Source of the DNA: Psammoneis japonica
Taxonomy: Eukaryota
DNA length: 31,895 nt
Assembly: GCA_008632985.1 (NCBI GenBank)
Contig: QPGO01000253.1
Span: 62,001-93,895 of the forward strand
Direction of reading: 5' to 3'
The translations under genes and the position numbers were made by a program. Within the stretch, counting starts at the first letter, position 1. Each line of letters begins with the position of its first letter. This document shows, one piece after another, positions 1 to 31,895 of the stretch. The notes beneath the pieces are model-generated. The model saw nothing but the letters and a program-made list of their open reading frames with translations, was not told the origin of the DNA and made no database searches.

Positions 1-1514
1 GACAACTGCGAAACGATGCTGTTTCGATTGCTTTGGTGCAGGACAATTTGCCTGAATTGCAGATCACCCACCAGTGCTCCCTGGCAAACCCAGCATCAAT
101 CATTTGAAAACTTACAGAAAAAAGCAGTGGGTTCGTCGGGAGACTGCTGATCATCTTGGGTTCGGATGGGCGGGTGCTGATCACCTCAAACAGCTTCAAC
201 CATGCGATCAGCACGAAATGGAGTGCACAAAGTTGGTGACTCTTGATGTGACGGTGCCAAAATCTGATGGCATGACAGCGACGGAAAAGGTGACCGTTGA
301 CCCTTTTTTGGCCCCGGCACCTCTCAGTGCTTTGAGTTTCAACACGCCAACAAAGGGCACTCGCGCGTCCAGCGGAAATGGCACAGAACATGAAATCCTG
401 CGGCACGTGTTGAACATGAGCAAACGGGAAGCTTCATTGACGCCGCAAATGCAAATTGCTCTTGCAAAGGAGCAGCTTCTGAATGGTGTGGACCGTGACA
501 AAGAGAACAAACAACCAGAAGAGTTGGGGTGTGGGGACGAGATGAATTCGAAGGAGTCCAAGCCACCCAAAATCAATCTGTTCGATTTGAGTCCGAGTGA
601 AGTCAAACGACGGACGGGATTTGAAGACTTGAAGCACCTGTTGAGCTGCAGCATTGTTTGTTGTGAGGGCAACTTGGACAAGATGGTAGAGACTGCAACG
701 TGCTTGACATTCTTGGAGGAATTGATTCTCATGTACGAGCACACGCACGGTCGGACTCGCTCGCATTGGGAAGACATTGAAAAGGATTGGGGTGCCAACT
801 GCAGGACCTTGCAAAAGGTGATTGATCACCGTCTGCAAAAAGAACTGGAGTGTCGGGAGAGATGGCCGATGCATGCCTCCTGTGCCGAAGACGCCAAGTT
901 TCGTGATGAGAGATGGAATCAGCACTTCAGTCCGGTCGATGGACATCGTGTCATCATGCATGACGGAACGAATGTCCCGCTTCTTGATCCAAGCTCAGGC
1001 GATTTAAATCGAGCGCTTCACAATGTCCACCATGACATGTGTTGTGCAAAGGCTGGTGCAGCTGTGCAGCTGTGCAATTGGATTCTCGGCTTGCCGCTGG
1101 TGACGGGACACTGCGACGATGATCAGCTAATCAGATTCAGCAAGATGCTCGAATTGCAAAAGAACTTTGCAGACAACGACCCAGTTTCAGCTGGCGGCCA
1201 TGGCAAAAATGCAGCAATTGAAGAATTTCTGAACATGTTCGACAAAGGTCATCACATGCTTCTGGAAGCAAAAAGGCTGGGTCAACGTTGCTTGCAACCG
1301 ACAAAGTCGATTCTTTGATGGGCGGTGATGCAACCCTTGTTCAGCATCTGTGGCAGTGGTTGGATCAGGCAATGAGCGTGGCGTGAAGCGTTGCAAACTG
1401 TCTTGGATGCTCAAGCGAGGAATGCAAGACAAGCTGTGCAACGTTGATCGGCTTTGTGATGTTTGGGAGGCATGGAGCTTCCGCGTCAATTTCATGCACG
1501 AAGGCTTCCAGTGA
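1..1514 (+). pseudogene. Degenerate PIF/Harbinger/ISL2EU-like DDE transposase (DDE_Tnp_4-like), 5' end outside the window
   Basis: ORF 74-1318 has RVIMHDGTNVP, CCAKAG..VQLCNW..L..G..DD and FLNMFDKGH (canonical DKGY). After a frameshift near 1320 the C-terminus continues as SGNERGVKRCK..DVWEAWSFRVNFMH to TGA at 1512-1514. Tyr positions read as His/Cys; only about 6 TpA in 1.6 kb. Confidence 0.7.
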
Positions 1515-2896
1515 AGCACGACATTCTGGTGCATGCGATCAGATGCTGCGCTCCACTTGCAGTGTTTTGTGTGGGGAACGAACAACAACAAAGTCTCTAA
1601 CCCAGTTCTCTGTGTGACCCACCGCCTGCTCACTCTAAGAGGGCCCCGGTGTCAGCACCCACCGTACGGCAAACTGAGTCTGTTGTCACTGTCAGTGCCG
1701 TGGTGGTGCTGCACCGGTGCTCACCGTATGTCCGTCGCCATCAGATTTGTGACGTAGGCATTCAGTACAAAGAAGACGTAACATGTACGATAATACCAGG
1801 CCAACGTGCTTTTTACGGGGCCACCAGAAAATGGAAATACAATCGCTCCATGCTTCGTGCGTGCTTCATAACCTTACCGCCCGCCTGTGCGTGCTTCGTT
1901 GGTGCGTAGTCGTCGGTCGTACGATGTTTGTACGGTGTACGGTACCGTATTGTAGCAAGGATTTATAAGTCTGTCAGGATGTACAAGCTGCGTGGAACGC
2001 GTGTTGCCATGCGTGGTCAACAGCCTCTAAGTAATCTTGACGGTGCGAACTCCGCCGTTAAAGTATATAAATTTATTTTTATTTTATATATGTATTTGTA
2101 AAGCAAGAGACCGGACACGCGACGACTCCTCATTTTTTCAAGGGATCGCGCATCATTCATCAGAGCACACACACCATGATAATCGGAGCGCCGCTTATTA
2201 GACTATTGACGATCCTTTCAACAGTACCAACGCTATCTACTAGTCTTTACCTCCATATAGAAACAGATTATGTTGCTTTTTCGAAGGCAAGCGGCCAATT
2301 GTAAGGTGAAAAAAGGATTTTGTATTGACACCACGGTTCGAGACTCATTATCGCTCTCTGTCGCAATCGAATTATATTGTGCTTTTGTTTCGGCATCTCA
2401 CTCATTTTCTTTGACATGTTCGTCTTTATAACTCATATAGAGAAGCTGTTGAGCAACGTATCACCCCTACGGACGAACAATATCTCATACTTTCGTGTCG
2501 GTGTCGACACCATTTCTTTTCAACTCATGTTCTTCCTTATATCGGAACGGGGCTGTGGTGTGTCCTACGCTCTCTTTTGGACTGAACCAAGCAAGCTACA
2601 GTTGATAATTTCACGAATAATGACAATTATAATGTGCAATGGGTTGGATATTGACGTCCATGACCTTGCCGAGTGCCGGTTAGTAGTACTCCCTCGTTCG
2701 GGGACCGAAAACTGGGGTAAATCTTGGTGGCGTGGAGACTCTGCGATTGGAATGCGAGCGAGCGGGCTGGAATCTCGTGCAGTTTACTTCTGAAGGATGT
2801 GTACAATAAGGTATGTTTACATTTAAAGCAGTATTGATGCATCATGCATTTACAGTACCGGCATGACAAACAAACTAACAATATCATTCTCCATCT

Positions 2897-3342: not shown

Positions 3343-3543
3343 CTTCGAGGTATCTATGATATTTGTGCATGGTTATTTATAAATGATAAGTTCGTCCCGT
3401 CAGAAGCCCTACGTAGACTGCCGTAAAACGCAGTACAAATTTTAACGGTGTTCGTACCACGCATGGCAACAGGCTCGTGCGTAGATTTGTACCGGAGCTT
3501 GTACATCCTGACAGACTTATAAATCCTTGATTGTAGTTACTGA

Positions 3544-4268: not shown

Positions 4269-4596
4269 TGAAGTAGTAGGGCCTACATATTATGAATATA
4301 TACTGCTGTCAATCTCCAGTCGTGGAAATGACAGTTTTGAGGATAAAGTTTAATATTTAGGATTTTACAGATTGATTACATCAGTGCTTTATGATATAAT
4401 TGAAAGATTGGACATTTCATTGAAATTGAAGGTTAAATAAAAACTGCACAGATAACGGGGTTCACGCCAATTTTTTTTGCAAAAGTGTCTAATTTACGAC
4501 GACAAGTACTGCCAAGCACAGGTGTCGAACTTCTGTGGATCTTAGTTCTTAGTTGAGTGCATGCGTTGTGTGTCTTTTCTCAGTCCACCATGATCA

Positions 4597-6932
4597 ATGA
4601 TGAGGAATGCGTTGCTTCCGCTACTCGTTGCCGTCCAGGCAACCAATGCCTACAAGATCGCCCTTGTTCCCAAGATGACTTCGGCGGTTGGGTTTTACGG
4701 ATTGGTCGAGGAAGGATGTCAAGACAGTGCCGATCAGCAAGAGAACGTAACCTGTTTTTACAACGGAACTTTTGATGCAAGCGTCGAAGGATCTCTAGCT
4801 ATTCTGAACGACCTTATCGACGACGACACCATCGATGGCATTTCTATTTCAGTCCTGGATCAAGACGCCTACACGCCTGTGATTAACAGAGGGATTGCGC
4901 TAGGAAAACCCATCATCACGTTTGACAGCGATGCTCCTGAATCGAACCGCCTGGCGTACATTGGAACGAACAACTACGCTATGGGAAGAGAACTGGCCAA
5001 GCTATTGAAGCAAATCAAACCAGACGGAGGAACATATGGTATTGTTTCTGGCTTCGGACATAATTTACAGGAAAGAGTTCAAGGGGTCCGAGATGGTTTG
5101 GAAGACACACCATGGTTTGAAGTACGCGATTCCCCCAAGAATGGCTTGGAAGATTCCGCTATCAGCCTTGAAAAGATGTGGGAGTTGGTCCAGGAAAATC
5201 CAGCGATAAACGCGATTGTTTCCGTGGTGGGGTTGGTAAGTTTCAATTGAGCTCACTCCTACCAGGTGTACTGTCAATTTGTTTCTTTCTCACATCGGAA
5301 CGAACTCTTACTTTTTGTCTTCAGCCAATGTTCCCAGAGAACACGACAAACTGGAAGAACTTTGTCGATTCAAATCGAGACGTACTAACAGTGATCGCTG
5401 ACGCGCTCCCAGTTCAGCTTAGATTAATGCAAACGAGCTATGTTGACGCCCTCGTGGGACAACTACCATACAACATGGGTTTTCAGTCGGCAAAACGCTT
5501 TTGAAGGTTCTTGACGAGATCAACCAAGGCACTCCGTTAAACGAATCATTACCGTCTGATATCATCTTTGGCACCCATCAGCTAGAAGTCCTTCGCATTC
5601 CGCTCAAATTGCCCCCATTAAGTTTCAATTTCCACTACCTTGGGAATGTGGTTGTCGTCGGATACGTTCTCTGTGCAATTATTATCTTGGTTTCACTTGG
5701 GTTTGTGTACTGGACCGCGTACTTCCGAAAGAATCAGGTTGTCAGGGCTGGTCAACCGATTTTCCTCACCATGATTTGCGCTGGGACAATCTTGATGGCA
5801 TCGGCTATAATTCCTCTGTCCATTGATGACGAGAACAGCCAAACGTCCGCCGACATTGCTTGCATGTGCTCGCCGTGGCTCATCACCATTGGCTTCACTG
5901 TTTCCTTCTCGGCTCTCTTTAGTAAGACGTGGCGGCTGAATCAAATCTTTTTGAGTAAGAATTCCTTGAGACGAATCACGGTGACGGAGAAAGACGTAAG
6001 TATGCCCCAGCTCAATGTTTAACGTGAATCCATAGACATTATTTGTTCTCATTCCATGCGCACTTGTTTGCCAGGTCATGTTACCGTGTGTCGTTCTTTT
6101 GACGATGAATGTCATTGCCCTGATTTGTTGGACTGCGATCGCTCCGCTTAAATATGTTCGCACACTGGAAGATGGGACGGACCCTTGGAACCGTCCTATT
6201 GGTAGTTACGGTCAGTGCAAGAGCACTTCAGGCGCAGCTGGGAATTCTATTCCCTATTTAGTTGTCATTGCAGTCATCAATATTACAGCTCTTTTGGTGG
6301 CAAATTTCCAGGCTTACCGAGCTCGCAATATTAGGACAGATTTCAATGAAAGCTGGTACATTGCACTGACTAATGCGAGCATGCTGCAAGCGATTGTGGT
6401 CTGCCTGCCGATCATTTTCCTAACAAGAGAGAACCCTCAAGCTTATTTCATTGTGCTCTCAGTTGTACTGTTTATTGTTTCGGGAGCAATTCTGGTGTTC
6501 ATTTTTGTTCCCAAGACCCTTGCTTTGAAGAAGCGTCTCAAGAACCAAGACAGCCTGAAGAAAACTGTGAAGATAAGCGGCCTCCGTCTAAGCGGAGTCA
6601 CCGAATTGTCCGAGAGCCAACGTGCAGACATAGCTCAGGGAGGAGATGACCAGGTCAAGGCCCTATTGCAGCAATACCAGCTTCTCCCTTGGGAGGACAA
6701 AATGGCAGTGAAAAAGAAGCTTGCGATAATTTCAGAGGCAGGGTCTACAGTGTACTCGAGTGAGAGCCTGAAGCAGGTGACCTTTCAAGTGGAAGATAGT
6801 ATCCCTTCGAAGGGAGACGCGATTAGTGACGGGGTGGATTCAATTCCAGAATCAAGCCGGAGCGCTACAGAAACAGCGCCCGGAACAAGCTCCGATGGAC
6901 TTTCAGACGTCGCTGATGACATGGAGGCCTAA
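4597..6932 (+). CDS. Class C (GABA-B-like, 7tm_3) GPCR with an N-terminal type I periplasmic sugar-binding-protein-like domain; one frameshift
   Basis: Signal peptide, then RbsB-like motifs (DGISIS, GKPIITFDSD, YIGTNNYAMG, LQERVQG, VDALVGQLPYNMG). The 7TM part has VVRAGQPIFL, CMCSPWLITIGF..FSALFSKTWRL, FNESWYI and IFVPK. Introns 5236-5324 and 5996-6074 (GTAAGT..CAG). One extra A in the run at 5492-5495 would give SAKTLLKV and join the frames. Confidence 0.88.
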
Positions 6933-17717: not shown

Positions 17718-20126
17718 CTACGGCTCAACTCCCTTCAATGAATTGAGAACATCCAATCCGTCCGTGTCGAAAAGCTTTGAAGCGTTGCTCTTGCTAACGG
17801 TTTCAAGCCATCCCTTTTTCTGTTTCTTGCTCGGATTTTCTTCCGGTTCTGATTCCATCACCTTTACTTGATCGTCTTCGAGAACACCAGGGTTCGCACC
17901 AGCTGTGTGGTCACAAGGGTATTGAACGATGAGACGAACACAGCCAAACCTTTCCCCAACAAGCTTGGGCACTACTTCCTCCCAGCGCCGCTTCAGACCT
18001 TGCTTAGACGTTATCTTAGTTGCGAGCTTCGGATCCGTATCTCGATTTTGATGGTATAAAAGGCTGGAGTGACCGATCTCAAAGCTTCCATTAGATTGAC
18101 ATTCTTTCTGTATTTGGCTTGTGATATGACCGCACGTAGTCTATGTACGAATCATTCCACATTATGAACATGAGATCTGGTCCAATTGCCGTGTCTGGGT
18201 AGCAGAATGGTGGCACTTGGCCCTCAAAAGTACAAGTTGTTGCAGCTTCGATCCAATGAATTGTCGCACTAGCGTCCTTGCATGACACAGCAAGCATTCC
18301 GTAGGCCGACCTATGGGGCACCGTATGCTTTTTCAAGACATCCCCTTTGTCGCCAAGCTGTTCTTGGAGTATTTCTGGAAGTCTCTTTTGAATCGCTGGC
18401 AGCATTACCTTCTCGAATAATCCTTCACCTAAGCCACCATCCTCTTGCGCTTTCATGTTGTCGATGGCCGTTGCTGGAGTGAGAAAAAATTGATGCCAGC
18501 TTGAATCACAATTGGCTCGTAGAGAACCGCCATGTTACTTTCGCAACTAAGAGCAGCTAAGCCAACCTCAACAAGCTCTGCGTGGTGCTTAGAAATGTAC
18601 ACCGGCTGTCCTCCAACGGCAAACTTGAAAGCGGCATTCTCCAGCACACTGGCAACCTGATGCCCTCCCTTCTCGACTGCGTGCTTAAAGGCACTGTACG
18701 CTGTGCCCTCAGGCGGGTCGAATGATTCTCGTCTGTCCCCACCCATGCCATCGAGATTCTTAATCGTTTCCCCGGTGTACTTGTCAATGTAGCGATCTAA
18801 AGCCTCTATCAGCGCGCACCCCTGAGCCGAGAATGATCCTCTCGTCCCGGTGTAGTTGTCTCTTTTCTCTCGTACCAAGTATAGCTCCAAAAAGGATGCG
18901 GACCACCGTGGGCAACCTCGAAGCCACTTGGAGATGTGACCAATCACGCTAGCAATTGAAGCTTTCCCTATTTCTTCAGGATCATCCAAGTCCAAGTCAA
19001 TGAAAGTGAGAAGATATTCTTGGACAGCGTTTTGGCATCGTGGATGTTGAAAGCCTTGAAGACAGTCGTGCTGTTCTCCGATAGCGTATGTGGCCGTTTT
19101 GCCATGACCGAATACGATGCTTCCCTGATCTCATCAATCGACATTCCTGTACCGGCTGCCAGTGGAAAGCCTGTATCTGAATCCAGAGTTACCGTCAGCA
19201 TGTTCGTCAATGCCTTGAGCACAGCAGAAAAGGCATGTCGCTTTTCACCCCCGTTCGAACTAAGGAAAAAATCATTTAGTTTTTTCAGAAGCTCTTGTGC
19301 CTCGTCTACCACCATCGTAGTCCAGGGCAGCACTTTTTCTCCGTTACGATTGTCAAGGGCAACTGTGACACTGACATCGTTTGGCCTCGTAAAGGCGTGA
19401 ATAACACATTTACCACAGACAAGACTAAAAAGGTCTTTTTCAATGCCTCCTTCGGGAACAGTTGCATCAAGAGCCAGTCGTACGGCGTGAGTTCTTGTTT
19501 CTTTTTGATTCAGCTGCTTGTTAATCGCATCGAAAACGGCAATTCGTCCAGCACACAATCTTGATGTGTCGATCCATGTTTCGCTGGTTCTCGTCGCTTC
19601 GGTTTCGTTGTCGCTGCAGTTGTTACTTTTCATCATCTTGGGAGTCACCTCCATCCAATTCACCCAGAAAATTATGTCCATGAAACTCCTGAAACGAACC
19701 CATCAGTCTCGATAGATCCTTCGACCCAGGGTCATTCGTTGTCTTAGCCACAAAGTACAAGCCAAAGTTGTGGCTGAGGCATTCGTAGACGGCGCGTGTT
19801 TTCCCCGCTCCTGAAGTGCCATACAATCCACTACAAATGTCCTTTGTTCCGTCAATGAACTGTGAACCTCTGTGCATTTGTGCGTGTCATTCTGGAGATC
19901 ATGCAACAACAGTGAAGGAATGGGAAGCTTCGTGCAGGAAGGATCCTGAGGAATGGTGCTGTGCTGCATTGGAGATCAGCCAATGGACCCTTCCCTGTGG
20001 ATGCATAAATGATTCCAAGCAGAAAGATTCATGTGGATGCTCATTGAAGTGCTCATCTACAAGATCAGAGCACAGTTGAGCAACAGTGCGCGCATCGGCA
20101 TCGGTTTCTGCATTCGCAGTTGCCAT
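17718..20126 (-). pseudogene. Crinkler/RHS-like P-loop NTPase + restriction-endonuclease-fold gene, disrupted
   Basis: Walker A GTSGAGKT, Walker B MVVDEAQ, AGTG, then PDTAIGPDL and SQAK (nuclease-like). Two in-frame TGA at about 19887-19901 and frameshifts near 19650, 18990, 18460 and 18110. Likely start MATANAE at 20126. Confidence 0.68.
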
Positions 20127-20428
20127 TGTTGTGGTTTTTGGAGAGAGAGCTGTTGTTGTTTTTGTTGTCGCTAAGAACAACCGAACGCCCACACCCACAC
20201 CTTCCATCTCCACGATTGCGACGATGCAGGTTCACCAGGCACAGCAAAAGTCTGTTGGCAAGCAACGCTTGCAAAATCGTGCAGTTGTGCTCGAGACATC
20301 ATGACATCTGGTCTACGTTGCCGGTCCGGATCTCTGCGTCCGTGCTCTTGCGCTGTCTGCGGCAGTTTTCTGCAGGCTTTTGTTCAACCTTATTTTCAAT
20401 TTGCCACCACATGCCAGACAATGTGACG

Positions 20429-21180
20429 ATGAGCAATTTGCGGGCAAGAGTTGTGCTGAGTGCCTTTGTGAGCTCAATCGTTTTGTTGTTGCAACAGAAG
20501 GCCTTTGTTGGTGGAGAAACCGACGAATGCAAGCCCCAAAATGCGGCAGTCATGACCCTTGTGACAACGAGCGATTGCGTCAAGGGCGCAAAAGTGTTGG
20601 CTCACTCTTTGGACAAAGTGAGCGCCTCTGGCGACCGAGTTTTGCTTTGCGCATTTCCCGAAGACGACCCTCATTTAGATCTCACACAAGAGCGTGTGCT
20701 CGACCTCCGTGATGCCCGCTGGACCAAGACTCGGAGACTCGCGTCAAATGACGGAACGCTTTCCATGTGCAAAGCATCAAAGGAGCAGCAGCGCACATTT
20801 GAACAGAGTCCAAAAGAGCTGGCTGGGTCAGCAAGATGCTGGGGAATGAGCAGCAAATTTGCAGTCTGGATGCCAGCTGAATGTGATGTCATCGTCTGTG
20901 TTGACGTGGACAGCTTGGTGCTTGACAATTTTGACTTTGTGTGCGATGTGATGAATGGGGCGAGTGGCGCCACCCTTTTGGCTCAGGGAACGCCATGTTG
21001 CTGGGAGGATCCACCTGACTGTGGCGCATTTTGTGGTGCTTTCATGGTTGTCAAACCCATGCCCCACATTCACAAATGCTCTCATGACCTTTCAGCTGAA
21101 AATTTCTTGGCCAAGGGGAACTGCCGCTGCTGAATCAAGTTTGCAAATCATGGCAGCCACTCCCTCGACACACACCGGCG
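20429..21180 (+). pseudogene. Truncated, hypermutated duplicate of the GT8 glycosyltransferase
   Basis: Aligns to 21682-22437. Every Tyr is replaced by Cys/His, YIDAD becomes CVDVD, there is a 1-nt deletion near 21115, and it is cut at the duplication junction. Confidence 0.95.
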
Positions 21181-21349
21181 GCTGTGCTGCATTGGAGATC
21201 AGCCAACAGACCCTTCCCCGTGGATGCATTGATGATTCCAAGCAGAAAGATTCATGTGGATGCTCTTTGAAGTGCTCATCTACGAGATCAGAGCACAGTT
21301 GAGCAACAGTGCGCGCATCGGTGTCGGTTTCTGTATTCGTAGTTGCCAT
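21181..21349 (-). pseudogene. Second, truncated copy of the Crinkler-like gene 5' end
   Basis: MATTNTETDTDARTVAQLCSDLVDEHFKEHPHESFCLES matches 19958-20126. Confidence 0.8.
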
Positions 21350-21681
21350 TGTTGCAGTTTTTGGAGAGAGAACTGTTGTTGTTTTTGTTGTTGTCGACAA
21401 GAATAACCGAGTGACGCCCACACCACACCTTCCGTCTCCACGATTTCAGATTGCGACGATGCAGGTTCACCAGGCGCAGCATTAGTCTGTTGGCGAGCAA
21501 CGCTTGCAAAATAATCGTACAGTTGTGTTCGAGATATGATAACTACGTCGCCGGTCCGGATCTCTGCGTGCTCTATGCTCTATCGCGCTTACATCGCGCT
21601 GTCTGCTGTCTGCGGCAGTTTTCCGCAGGCTTTTTTCTTTTTCATTTTCAATTTGCCACCATTCCAGACAAAAATGCGACG

Positions 21682-22728
21682 ATGAGCAATTTGCGGGTAA
21701 GAGTTGTGCTGAGTGCCTTTATAAGCTTAATCGTTTTGCTGTCATTGCAACAGAAGGCCTTTGTTGGTGGAGAAACCGACGAATACAAGCCCCAAAATAC
21801 GGCAGTCGTGACCCTTGTAACAACGAGCGACTACGTCAAGGGTGCAAAAGTGTTGGCTTACTCTTTAGACAAAGTGAACGCCACTGGTGACCGAGTTTTG
21901 CTTTACGTGCTTCCCGAAGACGACCCTCGTTCAGATCTTACACAAGAACATATACTCGACCTCCGTGATGCCGGCTGGACCAAGACTCGGAGACTCACGT
22001 CAAAAGACGGAACGCTTTCCGTTTGCAAAGTATCAGAGGAGCAACAGCAGATAATCGAACAGAATCCAAATGAACTAGCTGGGTTGGCAAGATACTGGGG
22101 AACGTGCAGCAAATTTGCGGTCTGGACGCTAACTGAATATGATGTCGTCGTCTATATTGACGCGGACAGCTTGGTGCTTAATAATTTTGACTTTGTGTAC
22201 GATATGATGAATGAGATGAGCGGTGCCACCCTTTTGGCTCAGGGAACGCCAGGTTGCTGGGAAGATCCGCCTGACTGTGACACATTTTATGGTGCTTTCA
22301 TGGTTATCAAACCCATGTCCCACATTCACAAATACCTTCATGACCTTTCAGCTGAAAATTTCTTGGCCGAGGGCGAACTACCTTTGCTGAATCAAGTTTA
22401 CAAATCATGGCAGCCACTCCCCCGATACACATTGGTGGCTCAAACCGAAACCGCACGACCACGTCCGAATGATGACCCAAACCAAAAAGTGGATTGGTCG
22501 CGTGTCGTAGTCTACGACTTTTCCGGCATGCCTCAAACCAAACCGTGGGTAACTTACGCGTTGCAGAAGGAACAGGGAAACAAGTATGCGCACGGTTATT
22601 TTGGAAGTTTGCCCGCCGGATCTCCCAACGTTGATATTTACATGGAACCGCAGTGGATATGGAATGAATACTACGATGCTATCCTACAAGAAAAGAGTGC
22701 CAGAGGCAGCACGGAACCCGACCTGTGA
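21682..22728 (+). CDS. GT8-family (glycogenin-like) glycosyltransferase
   Basis: N-terminal signal/anchor, AVVTLVTTSDYVKGAKVLAYSL, SKFAVWTLTEYDVVVYIDADSLVL (DxD), LLNQVY and KPW; intronless ORF. Confidence 0.9.
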   Translation: MSNLRVRVVLSAFISLIVLLSLQQKAFVGGETDEYKPQNTAVVTLVTTSDYVKGAKVLAYSLDKVNATGDRVLLYVLPEDDPRSDLTQEHILDLRDAGWTKTRRLTSKDGTLSVCKVSEEQQQIIEQNPNELAGLARYWGTCSKFAVWTLTEYDVVVYIDADSLVLNNFDFVYDMMNEMSGATLLAQGTPGCWEDPPDCDTFYGAFMVIKPMSHIHKYLHDLSAENFLAEGELPLLNQVYKSWQPLPRYTLVAQTETARPRPNDDPNQKVDWSRVVVYDFSGMPQTKPWVTYALQKEQGNKYAHGYFGSLPAGSPNVDIYMEPQWIWNEYYDAILQEKSARGSTEPDL

Positions 22729-26942: not shown

Positions 26943-27759
26943 CTGGATGCGTCCGGGCGATCCAGGAAACTTCGAAGACTTCGAAAGATTCCATATTCCA
27001 TGACATTTCTGTAAATTATTCTACGTGCAGAGCTCGTAGGTTGTTGGTACTTAATAAATAAGGGGCAATAGATAAAAGTTCGAACAAATATGTTGTGTGT
27101 TCGAAGCTTTCGAATATTGTTCGAAGTGTTCGAATTTTTGTCGAAAACATATTGCCCTCCAAAGATTTTGATTTATGTCACCTATTGTTCGAACTTTTCA
27201 TATTGCCCTTTTGGTCACTTCGAACTTATTCGAACAAAGTTCGAACTTATTCGAACAAGTTCGAAGTGTTCGAACAAGTTGAATAGTAGATCTCGTACTG
27301 CCTGTACGCGTTACTTGTCGCTTCGATTGTACGTACCGTATCTCATCATCTCATTGATAGAAGAGAGCACAAAACAACAACGTGAGATATCATACCGTAT
27401 CGCGCGTGTACCTACTAGTCTACCAGCAGTACACTACATCATTCGGCTACGGGATGTCATCGTGACATCATCATTCGTCTCCCCTGCCGTTACTGTACTA
27501 TTTTTATTTAAGAAAAAAACTTCGAAAGTGTTCGAAGTACTTCGAAGTGTTCGAAGTATTCGAACACTTCGAACAACTTCGAACACTTCGAACTTTCTTT
27601 GGGGCAGTATAAAGGGCAATAGAGAAAGAAATTTTACAATGTTCGAAGCTTTTGTCCATCCTACACGAGGTCCACGTAGAGATATATAAATAGGAATTAG
27701 GAATCTCTTAAATATTTTTCGAAACTTCGAAGTTTCCTGGATCGCCCCGCTCCATCCAG
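26943..27759. mobile_element. Foldback/MITE-like inverted-repeat element with TTCGAA arrays
   Basis: Perfect 23-bp inverted repeat GGGCGATCCAGGAAACTTCGAAG (26955-26977 and 27725-27747), extending imperfectly outward. About 25 TTCGAA copies lie in two arms around a roughly 200-bp core. No TSD found. Confidence 0.6.
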
Positions 27760-27819
27760 ACCAACACCTCGAGCAGAATACAAGTGGAGAGCATCTACTG
27801 ACGAGCAGTGACGAGTGCT

Positions 27820-30800
27820 CAGTCAAAAGTCTTTCACAAAACTGCCAGTGACCAAATTATGAGCCACCTGGACTGAATCTGCTGAGTGCAACAAACAGAG
27901 GTTCATCCTCCGCACACACTTGTGCTGGAGACCAGCACAAGTTTCAGGGTCAACCACTTTCACAACAGTCATCCAAGTGCTGCTGAACCAATGCATGGTT
28001 GGTCCAACATCCATGCAATGCCTGTGATCCTCAAAGCAGATTCCGGCCGATGGAAGTGCAGACACATTGGAGAATTTGGGTCGGTCGACAGATGGCCCAT
28101 TGCTCTCCCTCTCATTCACAGATTCCAGCAACCAAAAAAGAAACTGCAAATGAGAAAGCTTGCACAATTGGCACAAGTTCAGAGCAAAGCCCCTGCACAT
28201 CTTGACCGAGCCACAACACACACAACAAACAAAGGAAGCAATGCTCCCAAAAGGCCACCACCCTTGGACCTTCAACTGGTTGTTCTGAAAGAGTTCTCGA
28301 GTCAAAGGCTTCACAAGAAAATTGGTGAGCTGATCAGCCAATTCCATCTTGAATGCATCAAACTTGTCACAATGTGACCAGAGCCAGCACCACTTGATGA
28401 GAAAATGCTTGGCGCGATTCGTGATGCGGTGGTTGGCAGCCAGGCAGCAACCACCTTGATTGTCTTCAAACACACAAGCACAAACAGAAGTTTTGAGATC
28501 TTGGGGAATGTCCAAGGTGGAGACAATTTCAAGGAGCATGTTCTTCAAAGGTGGGAGTGTTCAAAGTGCACAGGAGGCGGCTTGGTGCTCAGCTTCAAAA
28601 GTGTGGAGCATGCAATGGCCAACTGGAGCTGCAATTTCCACACCAAAAGACACTCATTGAGAGCAATGAAGCATCTGGTGCAAGACCTGACCAAATTTAG
28701 ATCAGAGCCCTTTTTTCAGCAATGGAGACCAGCAAAAACAGCATCGTCAACCCAGCACAAGTCAAGATCCAAGTGACCGGTTGGAGACAGTGGCATCCCC
28801 TGATCACGTGTCCTCTCAAGGTGTCAGACAAGAGTCTTGATGGCAGCAGCATGCAACTGCTTTGGGTTGGAATTGAAGCGCGCAACCTGGCTGATGGAAA
28901 AGGAGGCATCAGGGCGGGTGTCAGCAGACAAGTGCAAGAGCATCCCAACGATGGAGGGGCAGCTCCAATCCTCCTGCATGGGGTCCTGTTGACATCACTG
29001 CCAAGTGCTTGAGATGCTGCAGGGAGCAAGTTTGGTTTGCAGTCTGTCACACTGGCAGCAGCCAAAATCTTGTCAAGAGTCAACCCCTTTTGAGACAACT
29101 TGACAGCACCATCATCTCGCCTTTTGAACTTGATGCCCAGAAACTTGGCAAAACTGCCCTCTTTTGTCTGCTCAAATCCTTTCTTGCACAGTTGAGACAT
29201 CACTCAGTTGATGGTGGACTCCTGTGCTGCACTGACACCACAATTGTTGACACGCAGGCAGACCATGCAATCTTTGTGGAGCAGAAGGCATTGGCTGCAC
29301 TTGCTTTGGATGAAACCCAAATCCAAGAAGGCCTGCAGGCAATGCTCATGCCACAACTTTGGAGCTGAAGAAAGTCCACAGTGGCTCTTGACATGCTTGA
29401 GACAGGTCTTGGGTCCTTTTGCAGAGTGGAAACCATGTGCTGGGAGATGGGTCCAAACTGGCTCTTCCTTGGGAAGCACCACCTGAATGAATGCAGACTG
29501 GAAATCAGCAGATGCAGTGTGCCATCCGAGGATTAGACTCAACACCAGAAATTCCAAAACTGCACTCCAAGCAACAACATGAGCACGGGCATCAAATGGG
29601 CTCCCTTCCTGCAAATTGCTGCAACAGCAGTGCCAAGCCTTGTGTTTCTTGATCTCACCCAATGGCAATCTGCCGGGAAGCATCTTGGCTCAAGCATTGG
29701 AGACTTGTGCTTTGACCCACATTCCCTGATGGACAAGAGCAGCAATCTCAAACTGTTGGCTGTCTTCAACCATTTCTCACAATCAGGAGGGCACATGGCC
29801 TCATCCCACAACAGCTCATCAGCATCCTTGATCTTGCACACTGACACCTTGTGCGCGGCAGGTGCAGTCATGGATGTGTTGCAACAACCGCGATCAAACT
29901 TGCAGGCACAATGAAAATCAACAAAGTGAGACAAGCATCCATGTCCCTGAGAACCATCACACCCAAGGCAATCAGGTGTCAGGTGCAGCACAATTCTGGG
30001 TGGAATGCCAAACTGGAGCAGGAGAGCTGCAGTGCCTCATTGTTGGCAAGGATGCACAAGTCTCTCAGGATGCACAAGCTCTGGTGCAAGACCATGCAAG
30101 AGGCAGCCTGTTGCCATGTGTGGTTTGGCCACCATCAAATTTTGCACTGGATTTTACCAAGGCTTGCGTCAGGCTTCTGATGGGATGATGAACTCATCAT
30201 TTAAAATTGACAACAAGATGGCAACAACTTGTGCTTCCAAAATGTTAAAAAAAAAATGAACAGAAGAGAGACAGTCATTGAACTCAAAAATGAAACCTGC
30301 CACCGACGGAATGAGGCTCAGTGCAACACTTGTCCATTGCAATCCAATGACCATTTGTCAGCCACCGTGTGCAGCAATGATGTTTGTTGATGAACAACAA
30401 TTGGTCCCCAGTGCAATGTTGAGCATCTTCAATCTGTGTTGTGCGCCAGAACTTGCTTTTGCTTTTGACTCACTCATGTTGAAAAGTGAGAACATTTGTG
30501 TGCTTGAACAGCAGAGTTTGCAACATCAAAATTGCTCATGGACTCATCACAGTGCACGTGGCAATGTGCGTTCCATGCAGCTTGCACATCCTGATGCATC
30601 TTTGTTTGTTGGACTGTGTGGGTTTGCACACATGTGCGCACTGCATGTGGAAAACATGCACAGAATTGCTGCTGAGTGAATCGACGTGCGGTGGATTTTC
30701 ACAGGTGCACAATCCACCAGGTCTGCAGGGAAGACAAACAGATGTGGCAATGGCAATCTTTTGTGCTGCAAAGTCATTGTCAACAAAAAATGCATGAAAA

Positions 30801-31000
30801 TTGTGTGGACCAGCACAAAAATTGACCGCTTTGCCAAATGGCTGTGTCTTGTTGTCTCCATGACTGAAATGAAAAGAACATGATCATGATTGACAATCAT
30901 GATCACATTGTGACATTTGTCCATCTCAAAGAGAAGGATGTCCACACCCTTCTTGGGCTTCCTCTGGATGTTCCTGACAGAAAATGAAGGCAAATGGCAA
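27820..31000 (-). mobile_element. Heavily degenerate Ty1/Copia LTR retrotransposon (RT-RNaseH, PPT, probable 3' LTR)
   Basis: ADFQSAFIQ, KSHCGLSSAPKLW (canonical KSLYGLxxAP), LRVNN (YVDD), FLGIKF, LSQKGL, VFEDNQG, RAKHFLIKW and NFLVKPL. Purine tract GAGAGGGAGAG at about 28103-28113 on the minus strand. Outer boundaries are approximate. Confidence 0.85.
30047..30604 (+). mobile_element. 558-bp P-family element nested in Copia, related to 1956-3529, TpA-erased
   Basis: Left end CAAGGATGCACAAGTCTCTCAGGATGCACAAGCT and about 150 bp align to the reverse complement of 3380-3529. The right end ..GCGTTCCATGCAGCTTGCACATCCTGA-TGCATCTTTG aligns to the reverse complement of 1956-2012 with a small deletion. 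Flanks ATTGTTGG and TTTGTTGG form an 8-bp TSD with 1 mismatch. Confidence 0.85.
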
Positions 31001-31895
31001 GAATTCAAACAATGACTCCTCACTGCTGTCTAAATGGCAGATGAGTCTCCGCTCAGAGACCGTCACAGGAGCCGAAAGACGTGCAAGTCGGCACAATCGG
31101 GCCACTGTTGTCATTCTTGTGAGCCTTGTGGCTCGAAAGCAAACTGCATCGCACGTGAACGCGCAGAACTAAAGCACACAAAACTGTGCACGGCAAACTA
31201 AACAGCGTGCGATGCTTCGCGCGCACCCAAATCCTGTTCAAATCCTGTCACTCCCCAGTTTGCTTGAGGAGCCACAGAAACAGATTCGACTTCAGATGGA
31301 ATGAAGTTCCAGAACATGAGGGGGCGGAGAAGGTCCCAGATTTGGGAGTGACCCCAATGCTTGCTGAGAATGTCAGCAGGGTTGCGGGAGCCTTCGATGA
31401 AGTGGAACTCAAGGCAACCAGAGGCAATTGCCTCACGCACATGGTGGAACGACAGTGCGGTGTGTCGCTTGTGTAACTTGGAGTGCGGGATGGTGGCACT
31501 GTCTACAACCGACTTGTTGTCACCGAACATGTGACCAATGTTGCGGATCGGGACGCCAAGGTGGCGCAGGGTGATGCGCAGGTCGATGATCTGCTCAACA
31601 CAAGTCCTTGCGGCAACAAATTCAGACCCGCAGGTCGCAGTCTCCACGGTGGCTTGTTTCTTGGAGAACCAATCAGCCGGGAATTTGTTGAGGAAGTGGA
31701 GCATTCCCATGACAGAGCGTCCGGTGAGCATGCAATGGTGCAAGTTTGCATCGACGCAGTGGGTGGCAGTGACGAACTTGCCAAGGGGCGGTGGAGCGTC
31801 CTTCGGGATCATCTCTTCTGCTTCACCATGCACGGAATGCATCCATTCATAGGCCGGAGCAGGGAGATCCGAACAGTCGGGCTCTTCCGTACGAA
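31000..31895 (-). mobile_element. Second Copia (diatom CoDi-like): RNase H, PPT and start of the 3' LTR; continues beyond the window
   Basis: HCVDANLHHCMLTGRSV..DWFSKKQATVETATCGSEFVAA..FGDNKSVV..KRH.ALSFH.VREAIA..NPADILSK. On the minus strand, GGGGAG is followed directly by TGACA at 31250. The far LTR end was not determined. Confidence 0.9.

Follow-up and report, generated by a model that had tools for sequence, protein, structure and literature searches.

We analysed a 31,895-nucleotide stretch of the genome of Psammoneis japonica (GenBank assembly GCA_008632985.1, contig QPGO01000253.1, positions 62,001 to 93,895 of the forward strand), referred to here as the window and numbered from its first letter. 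Near the right-hand end of the window lies a stack of Copia retrotransposon remnants that has lost nearly all of its TpA dinucleotides. The stack consists of two units, a left-hand element (L) and a right-hand element (R), and two more TpA-purged patches, both of which retain CpG, occupy 1-1597 and 19958-21183. One of these is a copy of a glycosyltransferase family 8 (GT8) gene that adjoins its own unmutated duplicate. All results on segments, ordering and flanks come from this one window of 31,895 nucleotides, with its four purged segments and one dated pair. The principal features are as follows.

1-1597, plus strand: S1, a third patch purged of TpA but retaining CpG; it contains a 420-codon frame (56-1318)
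19958-21183, plus strand: copy A, a GT8 pseudogene lying in tandem with copy B (85% identity) and purged of TpA
21181-22440, plus strand: copy B, part of the intact GT8 gene (Pfam Glyco_transf_8), the unmutated internal control
27859-31030, minus strand: L, a TpA- and CpG-purged stack with a degenerate, probable Ty1/copia pol
31031-31895, minus strand: R, the 3' end of a second Copia element, TpA-purged and CpG-rich, continuing past the window end
31198-31893, minus strand: the RNase H frame of R, 231 codons, open to the window end and closed by its own TAG stop

TpA depletion and the coding content of the purged segments

A preliminary description of this DNA had reported about 13 TpA in 4.05 kb. 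We counted exactly 13 in 27800-31895 (4096 bases), compared with 259 expected from base composition (observed/expected ratio, o/e, 0.05) and with 182 expected per 4096 bases at the density of the window's TpA-normal DNA (Poisson P(<=13) = 3e-60), which confirms the TpA-depleted 4-kb stack. The same interval holds 95 CpG against 250 expected (o/e 0.38), with TG and CA raised to o/e 1.81 and 1.70; in the remainder of the window, TpA and CpG stand at o/e 0.57 and 0.99. The left edge of the purged block is abrupt: TpA is dense through 27858, and the next one occurs only at 28698. Flanking DNA has TpA o/e values of 0.62-0.63 and CpG o/e values of 0.99-1.17, and the flanking genes have a TpA o/e of 0.62. 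The border between L and R, near 31030, was placed from a step in CpG density and from loose contig ends at 31007 and 31080.

R matches the C-terminus of Copia polyproteins of 1,500-1,900 amino acids (E 2e-83, 67% identity), and its relatives carry PF07727 (RVT_2), so that R is assigned to Ty1/copia by homology. It belongs to a different Copia lineage from L. Given the density of out-of-frame stops in R, the probability that its frame is open by chance is 8e-4. The right-hand Copia had been described as retaining an open RNase H frame and many CpGs while nearly free of TpA, in agreement with the 231 codons, the 53 CpG (48 expected at the host rate) and the 7 TpA found here.

We scored the motif columns of R on 116 homologs of 62-72% identity. 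The column read as Cys in the R motif 'CVDAN' is Tyr in 101 of the 116, and the corresponding column in 'TATCGSE' is Tyr in 114, as expected from the recoding of YVDAN and TATYGSE that had been proposed. Across the eight conserved Tyr columns, R carries Cys at three, His at four, Phe at one and Tyr at none. Eight of the nine conserved Arg columns are retained, seven of them as CGN codons, and the ninth reads His (CAT). R matches the consensus at 133 of 158 conserved columns, with no stops and no frameshifts over 204 aligned residues.

Summed contig depth at 30678-31895 reached 94,000-189,000, compared with about 57 in single-copy DNA, and R's Copia family, or its long terminal repeat, is present in very many copies. 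These depths derive from one public sequencing run, possibly the window's own source sample, and so give no independent confirmation of the sequence. Public sequencing runs containing the stretch came from a single sample, with no RNA run listed. The preliminary description had also suggested looking for intact Tyr-bearing source copies; none was found for R's own family, and the best identity to a public protein was 72%.

The 420-codon frame of S1 encodes 2 Tyr, 15 Cys and 23 His and has no Pfam match. Its nearest Atlas clusters all carry DDE_Tnp_4, a PIF/Harbinger-type transposase domain, at a score of 0.83 that serves as a lead only, and S1 is probably a DNA-transposon remnant.

Direction of change and the order of TpA and CpG loss

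The tandem duplication covers the 5' part of the GT8 (glycogenin-like) gene, and the purged copy is the upstream, non-functional one. The open reading frame of the intact gene, at 21415-22728, has 437 codons, while the 362-residue frame of copy A contains no Tyr and has no Pfam match. At the 45 TpA of copy B, copy A reads TG at 25, CA at 13, TA at 2, CG at 1 and AA at 1, with gaps at 3. We polarised the pair with an outgroup of 44 homologous proteins, including named diatom proteins. Across 65 differing columns, copy B had the ancestral state at 53 and copy A at 7, with 5 ties, and all six conserved GT8 Tyr columns are Tyr in copy B and Cys in copy A. Because copy B fits the outgroup at 53 of 65 columns and at all six Tyr columns, this comparison indicates that TpA was destroyed in copy A, not created in copy B.

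Read from copy B to copy A, the differences comprise 44 A>G and 34 T>C, compared with 16 G>A and 20 C>T, and 20 of those last 36 lie at CpG. When A-to-G changes were sorted by the preceding base on either strand, 40 of 86 TpA sites had changed, compared with 15 of 193 for ApA, 18 of 195 for CpA and 5 of 157 for GpA. Aligned TpA were converted in 39 of 42 cases, and only 1 of the 42 became CG. This near-absence of TA to CG would follow if the enzyme needs T on the edited strand, since after a first hit the opposite adenine lies in CpA. Both strands were changed within single units, as seen from the 25 TG and 13 CA of copy A and from the three Tyr-to-Cys and four Tyr-to-His replacements of R.

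TpA and CpG loss had been described as converging on TG and CA, and this holds quantitatively. In every purged segment the combined deficit of TA and CG is matched by the combined excess of TG and CA, both computed relative to the host's o/e values:

S1: 5 TpA; TpA o/e 0.05, CpG o/e 0.80; deficit 78, excess 81
Copy A: 6 TpA; TpA o/e 0.08, CpG o/e 0.72; deficit 64, excess 70
L: 5 TpA, 40 CpG; TpA o/e 0.02, CpG o/e 0.22; deficit 275, excess 269
R: TpA o/e 0.16, CpG o/e 0.83; deficit 33, excess 33
Copy B (control): TpA o/e 0.53, CpG o/e 0.97; deficit 12, excess 20

The bases next to the TpA dinucleotides that survive are biased. Among the 23 surviving TpA of the four purged segments, 11 lie in YTAR (Y, pyrimidine; R, purine), compared with a host share of 0.169 (p = 6e-4), and 2 lie in RTAY, compared with a host share of 0.317. 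YTAR presents T-A-pyrimidine on neither strand, and RTAY presents it on both. The pooled product excess was 189 for YTGY plus RCAR and 52 for RTGR plus YCAY, classes that CpG decay also feeds. Taken from sequence context, these data suggest a preference for T-A-Y on the edited strand.

TpA loss exceeded CpG loss in four of four purged segments, which supports, for this window, the earlier suggestion that TpA is lost first. No 1-kb bin of the window was CpG-poor yet TpA-normal. In the A/B pair, neutral divergence at sites outside any TA, CG, TG or CA is 27 of 570, or 4.7%, and at that divergence 39 of 42 TpA had been converted, compared with 20 of 63 CpG. In the reverse comparison, copy B differs at 12 of 57 CpG. 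A rough log estimate for the pair gives about 2.7 events per TpA and about 0.4 per CpG.

L and R extend this comparison. The left-hand Copia had been described as having lost both dinucleotides, and we found the same (o/e 0.02 for TpA, 0.22 for CpG); the host rate predicts 175 CpG in L where 40 remain (P = 7e-35), and TG and CA stand at o/e 1.94 and 1.76. On stops and frame changes, neither of which depends on TA or CG, L reads as the older of the two. The minus-strand frames of 27860-29689 contain 13-19 stops each, with at least two frame changes. Since L has 13-19 stops per frame and R has none, CpG loss would track decay, with TpA already saturated in both. The picture is coherent: TpA is saturated in L and R alike, and CpG declines with age. 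CpG loss in this window would be due to deamination of 5-methylcytosine (5mC).

An unlikely alternative is that the order is not kinetic: TpA and CpG loss would be independently targeted, with S1, copy A and R unmethylated and L methylated regardless of age. Copy A lost CpG at 20 of 63 sites and copy B differs at 12 of 57, as if copy A were not specially methylated. The two processes are also separable, since relatives of R elsewhere lose CpG without losing TpA. Among 80 metagenome loci with such relatives (380,653 bases), there was one 750-base patch with TpA o/e below 0.15, only one locus had at least three of seven Tyr columns as Cys or His, and CpG-poor, TpA-normal copies were common (for example L022, TpA 0.61 and CpG 0.07). 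Seven of 96 public protein relatives carried Cys or His at half or more of the Tyr columns, and 11 had Arg loss of at least 30% with Tyr retained. Outside the Psammoneis japonica genome, CpG decay without TpA loss is normal among R relatives, so TpA erasure is a property of particular genomes rather than of the element family. Against independent targeting, the stops and frame changes of L (none in R) make it the older element, so that time alone can suffice for its CpG loss, and the greater loss fell on TpA in each of the four purged segments.

A candidate DNA-level mechanism and its rivals

With direction, TpA specificity, both-strand use, domain boundaries, order relative to CpG loss and mass balance observed as above, we consider it reasonably likely that DNA-level A-to-G mutation at 5'-TpA-3' acts in bounded domains and proceeds faster than CpG decay. 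Such mutation would strike silenced or foreign DNA within sharp boundaries; in this window its targets would be the two Copia remnants, S1 as a probable DNA-transposon remnant, and copy A of the duplicated host gene. The adenine of 5'-TpA-3' would become guanine on either strand, turning TA into TG or CA. The first hit would remove the TpA from the other strand too, leaving an end state of TG and CA and hardly ever CG. By the time neutral divergence amounts to a few percent, the process would be roughly 75-95% complete with most CpG still in place, so that TpA conversion would be several-fold faster per site than CpG decay. CpG decay would be separate, slow and later, adding to the same TG/CA pool, and the edited adenine would preferentially stand before a pyrimidine (T-A-Y). 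As to the chemistry, we infer that a polynucleotide deaminase converts adenine to inosine, which is then read as G.

Several points weigh against this reading. The order comes from four segments and one dated pair in a single window, and the CpG changes of the A/B pair are incompletely polarised, with 12 of 57 in the opposite direction. Because the excess CpG loss of copy A is small, methylation state may contribute, besides time, to the contrast between L and R. A TpA-first order is not general for R's Copia lineage: protein P0071 has lost six of seven Arg columns and kept five of six Tyr columns, and L022 is CpG-poor and TpA-normal. The flank preference was not significant in the polarised pairs alone, where we saw a trend (p = 0.2). 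The many copies of R may have been purged one by one or amplified after the purge. Finally, the roughly 20-fold repeat at 26950-27800 is TpA-normal, so repetition is not sufficient for targeting.

Erasure spared copy B and the flanking genes. Since copy B was spared and the 26950-27800 repeat is TpA-normal, repetition or homology alone fails to account for the choice of targets, and we infer that targeting follows chromatin state, not sequence homology.

It is improbable that TpA loss is a by-product of error-prone patch repair, in which the repair of lesions in silenced DNA, such as the T:G mismatches left by 5mC deamination, would recruit a polymerase-eta-like enzyme. The known error of polymerase eta is A to G at WA motifs. 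The changes seen here are A to G, are restricted to domains and co-occur with CpG decay in L, and copy A shows a small ApA excess (15 of 193, compared with 5 of 176 in the reverse comparison). However, TpA was hit about six times more than ApA (40 of 86 versus 15 of 193), which is sharper than a WA preference, and three segments were purged with CpG nearly intact, making CpG lesions an unlikely driver.

We think it very improbable that the TpA-poor state is native composition or the result of selection, with functional elements avoiding TpA through codon usage or nuclease avoidance. R is open and CpG-rich and belongs to a very abundant family, as such an explanation would have it, but seven of its eight conserved Tyr columns have been replaced by Cys or His. 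Copy A has neither a Pfam match nor any Tyr, L is full of stops, and non-coding parts were purged as well.

Editing of RNA before reverse transcription, by an ADAR- or ADAT-type enzyme acting on UpA in retrotransposon RNA, is more improbable still. ADAR-type A-to-I hyperediting of repeat-derived RNA produces A to G and prefers U (T) before the edited A. Two of the purged units are retrotransposons, and according to a preprint on the chlorarachniophyte Bigelowiella natans (Mettrop et al., bioRxiv 2026, 10.64898/2026.01.13.699255), RNA adenosine deaminases prefer U before the edited A. ADAR editing would mark RNA, and thus one strand of a retrocopy, whereas both strands and DNA that was never retrotranscribed are affected here. 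Editing of a single RNA strand is excluded by the mixture of outcomes inside each unit, copy A having 25 TG and 13 CA and R having 3 Cys and 4 His, and also by the purging of a tandem copy of a host gene and probably of a DNA transposon.

Repeat-induced point mutation (RIP), known from Neurospora and other ascomycetes, changes C to T mainly at CpA, creates TpA and mutates both copies of a duplication; it depends on cytosine methyltransferases of the RID/DIM-2 type. The process described here resembles RIP in being a dinucleotide-specific transition hypermutation with a strong skew, limited to bounded domains where it disables repeated or foreign DNA. Unlike RIP, it destroys TpA (o/e 0.02-0.16) and leaves TG and CA at o/e 1.4-1.9, and it left copy B untouched (45 TpA, intact GT8 frame) and the neighbouring 20-fold repeat unaffected. 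Least probable of all is a reversed polarity, in which the TpA-poor state is original and TpA-normal copies arose by RIP-like C to T at CpA and TpG: a two-copy comparison alone gives no direction, but this is refuted for the units tested by outgroups that favour the TpA-normal copy at 53 of 65 columns versus 7, and it conflicts with the Cys or His found in TpA-poor copies at conserved Copia and GT8 Tyr positions and with the normal TpA of R relatives.

Deamination of 5mC in methylated transposons turns CpG into TpG and CpA and cannot remove TpA. L resembles such decay in its CpG o/e of 0.22, and 7 of 11 CpG in a sister of one of its pieces read as CA or TG in L, feeding the same TG/CA pool. 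Unlike 5mC decay, the process in the window removed TpA, and three purged segments kept CpG at o/e 0.72-0.83.

The closest known system is that of B. natans (10.64898/2026.01.13.699255), the only one from which DNA-level A-to-G mutation at TpA is known, through that one preprint. In mutation-accumulation lines, A to G or T to C changes made up 210 of 211 mutations in one viral region and 20 of 20 in another, and every one of these changes fell at TpA, giving TpG or CpA according to the strand. The TpA rate was 7-9e-7 per site per generation, compared with 3.5e-10 genome-wide, and GC to AT ran at 3.9e-9 in the nucleocytoplasmic large DNA virus (NCLDV) region and at 0 in the virophage region. 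Transposon-type domains occur among the TpA-depleted coding sequences, and the authors propose genome defence, with an ADAT2-like deaminase as a candidate (10.64898/2026.01.13.699255).

The window shares with B. natans, as far as the main text describes it, A to G and T to C changes, T before the changed adenine, bounded regions, and a TpA rate or loss above that of CpG or GC to AT. The confinement seen in B. natans is likewise present, with purged patches at TpA o/e 0.02-0.16 compared with 0.62 in flanking genes. The 'active, fast' process proposed in the preliminary description would agree with the Bigelowiella rates. The targets differ: integrated NCLDV and virophage DNA in the chlorarachniophyte, transposons and a duplicate copy of a host gene in the diatom-like genome studied here. 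According to the same main text, TpA was reduced 1.8-fold in one B. natans region and not in the other, whereas more than 90% was erased here. That main text contains no mention of CpG, diatoms, trinucleotides or flanking bases, so that the order relative to CpG decay and the T-A-Y preference are what the present analysis adds to it. A literature search, with subscription journals and preprint supplements outside its coverage, found no report of TpA erasure in diatoms.

A broader proposal is tentative, and we hold it to be possible but doubtful. Diatoms may possess a DNA adenine-deaminase defence, possibly derived from TadA/ADAT, that prefers T-A-pyrimidine, is aimed by chromatin and delivers a burst of TpA mutation long before CpG decay; shared with Bigelowiella, it would be an old and widespread counterpart of RIP with the opposite chemistry. 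If so, fungal RIP would be joined by a second major class of genome defence by mutation, one operating in major ocean algae, and a natural DNA-acting adenine deaminase would be of interest to base-editing technology. The order of loss could provide a practical clock, with TpA loss marking recent silencing and CpG loss long residence, and it points to a rate that mutation-accumulation lines should be able to reveal. The T-A-Y preference and the rarity of TA to CG double changes would constrain the candidate enzyme. For annotation, purged elements lose Tyr codons and TAA and TAG stops, which leads to long false open frames and to elements missed by domain searches.

Anatomy of L, relatives of R and neighbouring features

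L contains the following pieces, among them a probable Copia reverse transcriptase, together with one counterpart elsewhere in the window.

29204-29689, minus strand: N-terminal part of the reverse transcriptase (Pfam RVT_2, E 7e-6, profile positions 54-156)
28697-29203, minus strand: C-terminal part of the reverse transcriptase (RVT_2, E 0.025, profile positions 189-242 of 244)
28743-28994, minus strand: a further reverse transcriptase piece in a different frame, from frame analysis and profile comparison
27823-28560, minus strand: a 245-codon frame downstream of the reverse transcriptase, lying in a third frame and resembling RNase H on visual inspection only
29690-31030, no strand assigned: purged DNA within the stack, TpA and CpG low as in the rest of L
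30047-30206, minus strand: a 160-bp repeat piece, 73% identical to its sister at 3377-3529
3377-3529, plus strand: the TpA- and CpG-normal sister of that piece

The match of 29204-29689 to RVT_2 scored 26.2 bits, short of the gathering score of 31.6. The N- and C-terminal reverse transcriptase parts share a frame and lie in collinear order, with an in-frame TGA between them. The 162-residue translation of the first part contains no Tyr, 11 Cys and 12 His, and its 'SHCGL' aligns to 'alyGl' of a local Copia reverse transcriptase profile (E 2e-4), as anticipated by the proposed change of LYGL to HCGL. The 27823-28560 frame, with no Tyr, 18 Cys and 10 His, matched no Pfam family at E <= 0.01. A Pfam search of 16 frames of 29537-31168 gave no credible match, and a word search with L's reverse transcriptase piece gave no homolog. 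R-family polyproteins searched by tblastn did not match L, except for the repetitive protein P0073 at 25-30% identity, and a profile built from these polyproteins matches L weakly.

In L, polarity could be assigned to changes at a single motif and within the 160-bp piece only. Of the 14 TpA in the sister, 7 read TG and 2 read CA in L (9 of 14); its 11 CpG read CA at 6 positions and TG at 1, with 1 kept. The balance of CA to TG flips inside L, with CA exceeding TG in 27859-30100 (35:16 and 36:19 per 250 bases) and TG exceeding CA in 30360-31030 (38:30 and 38:28 per 250 bases). This switch may mean that L combines pieces of opposite orientation, or that the process favours one strand. The repeat at 26950-27800, which adjoins L, is rich in TTCGAA and partly palindromic, with inverted repeats at 27216-27268 and 27513-27600; it has about 20-fold the single-copy contig depth yet normal TpA (about 60 per kb). 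At 4594-6932, a host gene encodes a periplasmic-binding-protein domain followed by a family-3 seven-transmembrane receptor domain, with ordinary TpA and CpG.

Four relatives of R from metagenome assemblies (P0075, P0107, P0140 and P0148) lack Tyr throughout the aligned part of RNase H, and all of these except P0107 also carry Cys or His at half or more of the conserved Tyr columns. Judging by such Tyr-poor relatives, the same TpA signature may occur in other organisms. Locus L048 has three of seven Tyr columns as Cys or His and a TpA o/e of 0.30. The sole strongly TpA-poor patch among the metagenome relatives, L027:51-800, is strongly strand-asymmetric, with CA at o/e 2.86, TG at 1.46 and CpG at 0.69. 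Four further relatives, P0212, P0213, P0214 and P0222, predicted on contigs of 0.1-2 Mb, carry two tandem Copia RNase H segments with Tyr intact, a pattern probably due to gene callers reading through nested or tandem Copia insertions.

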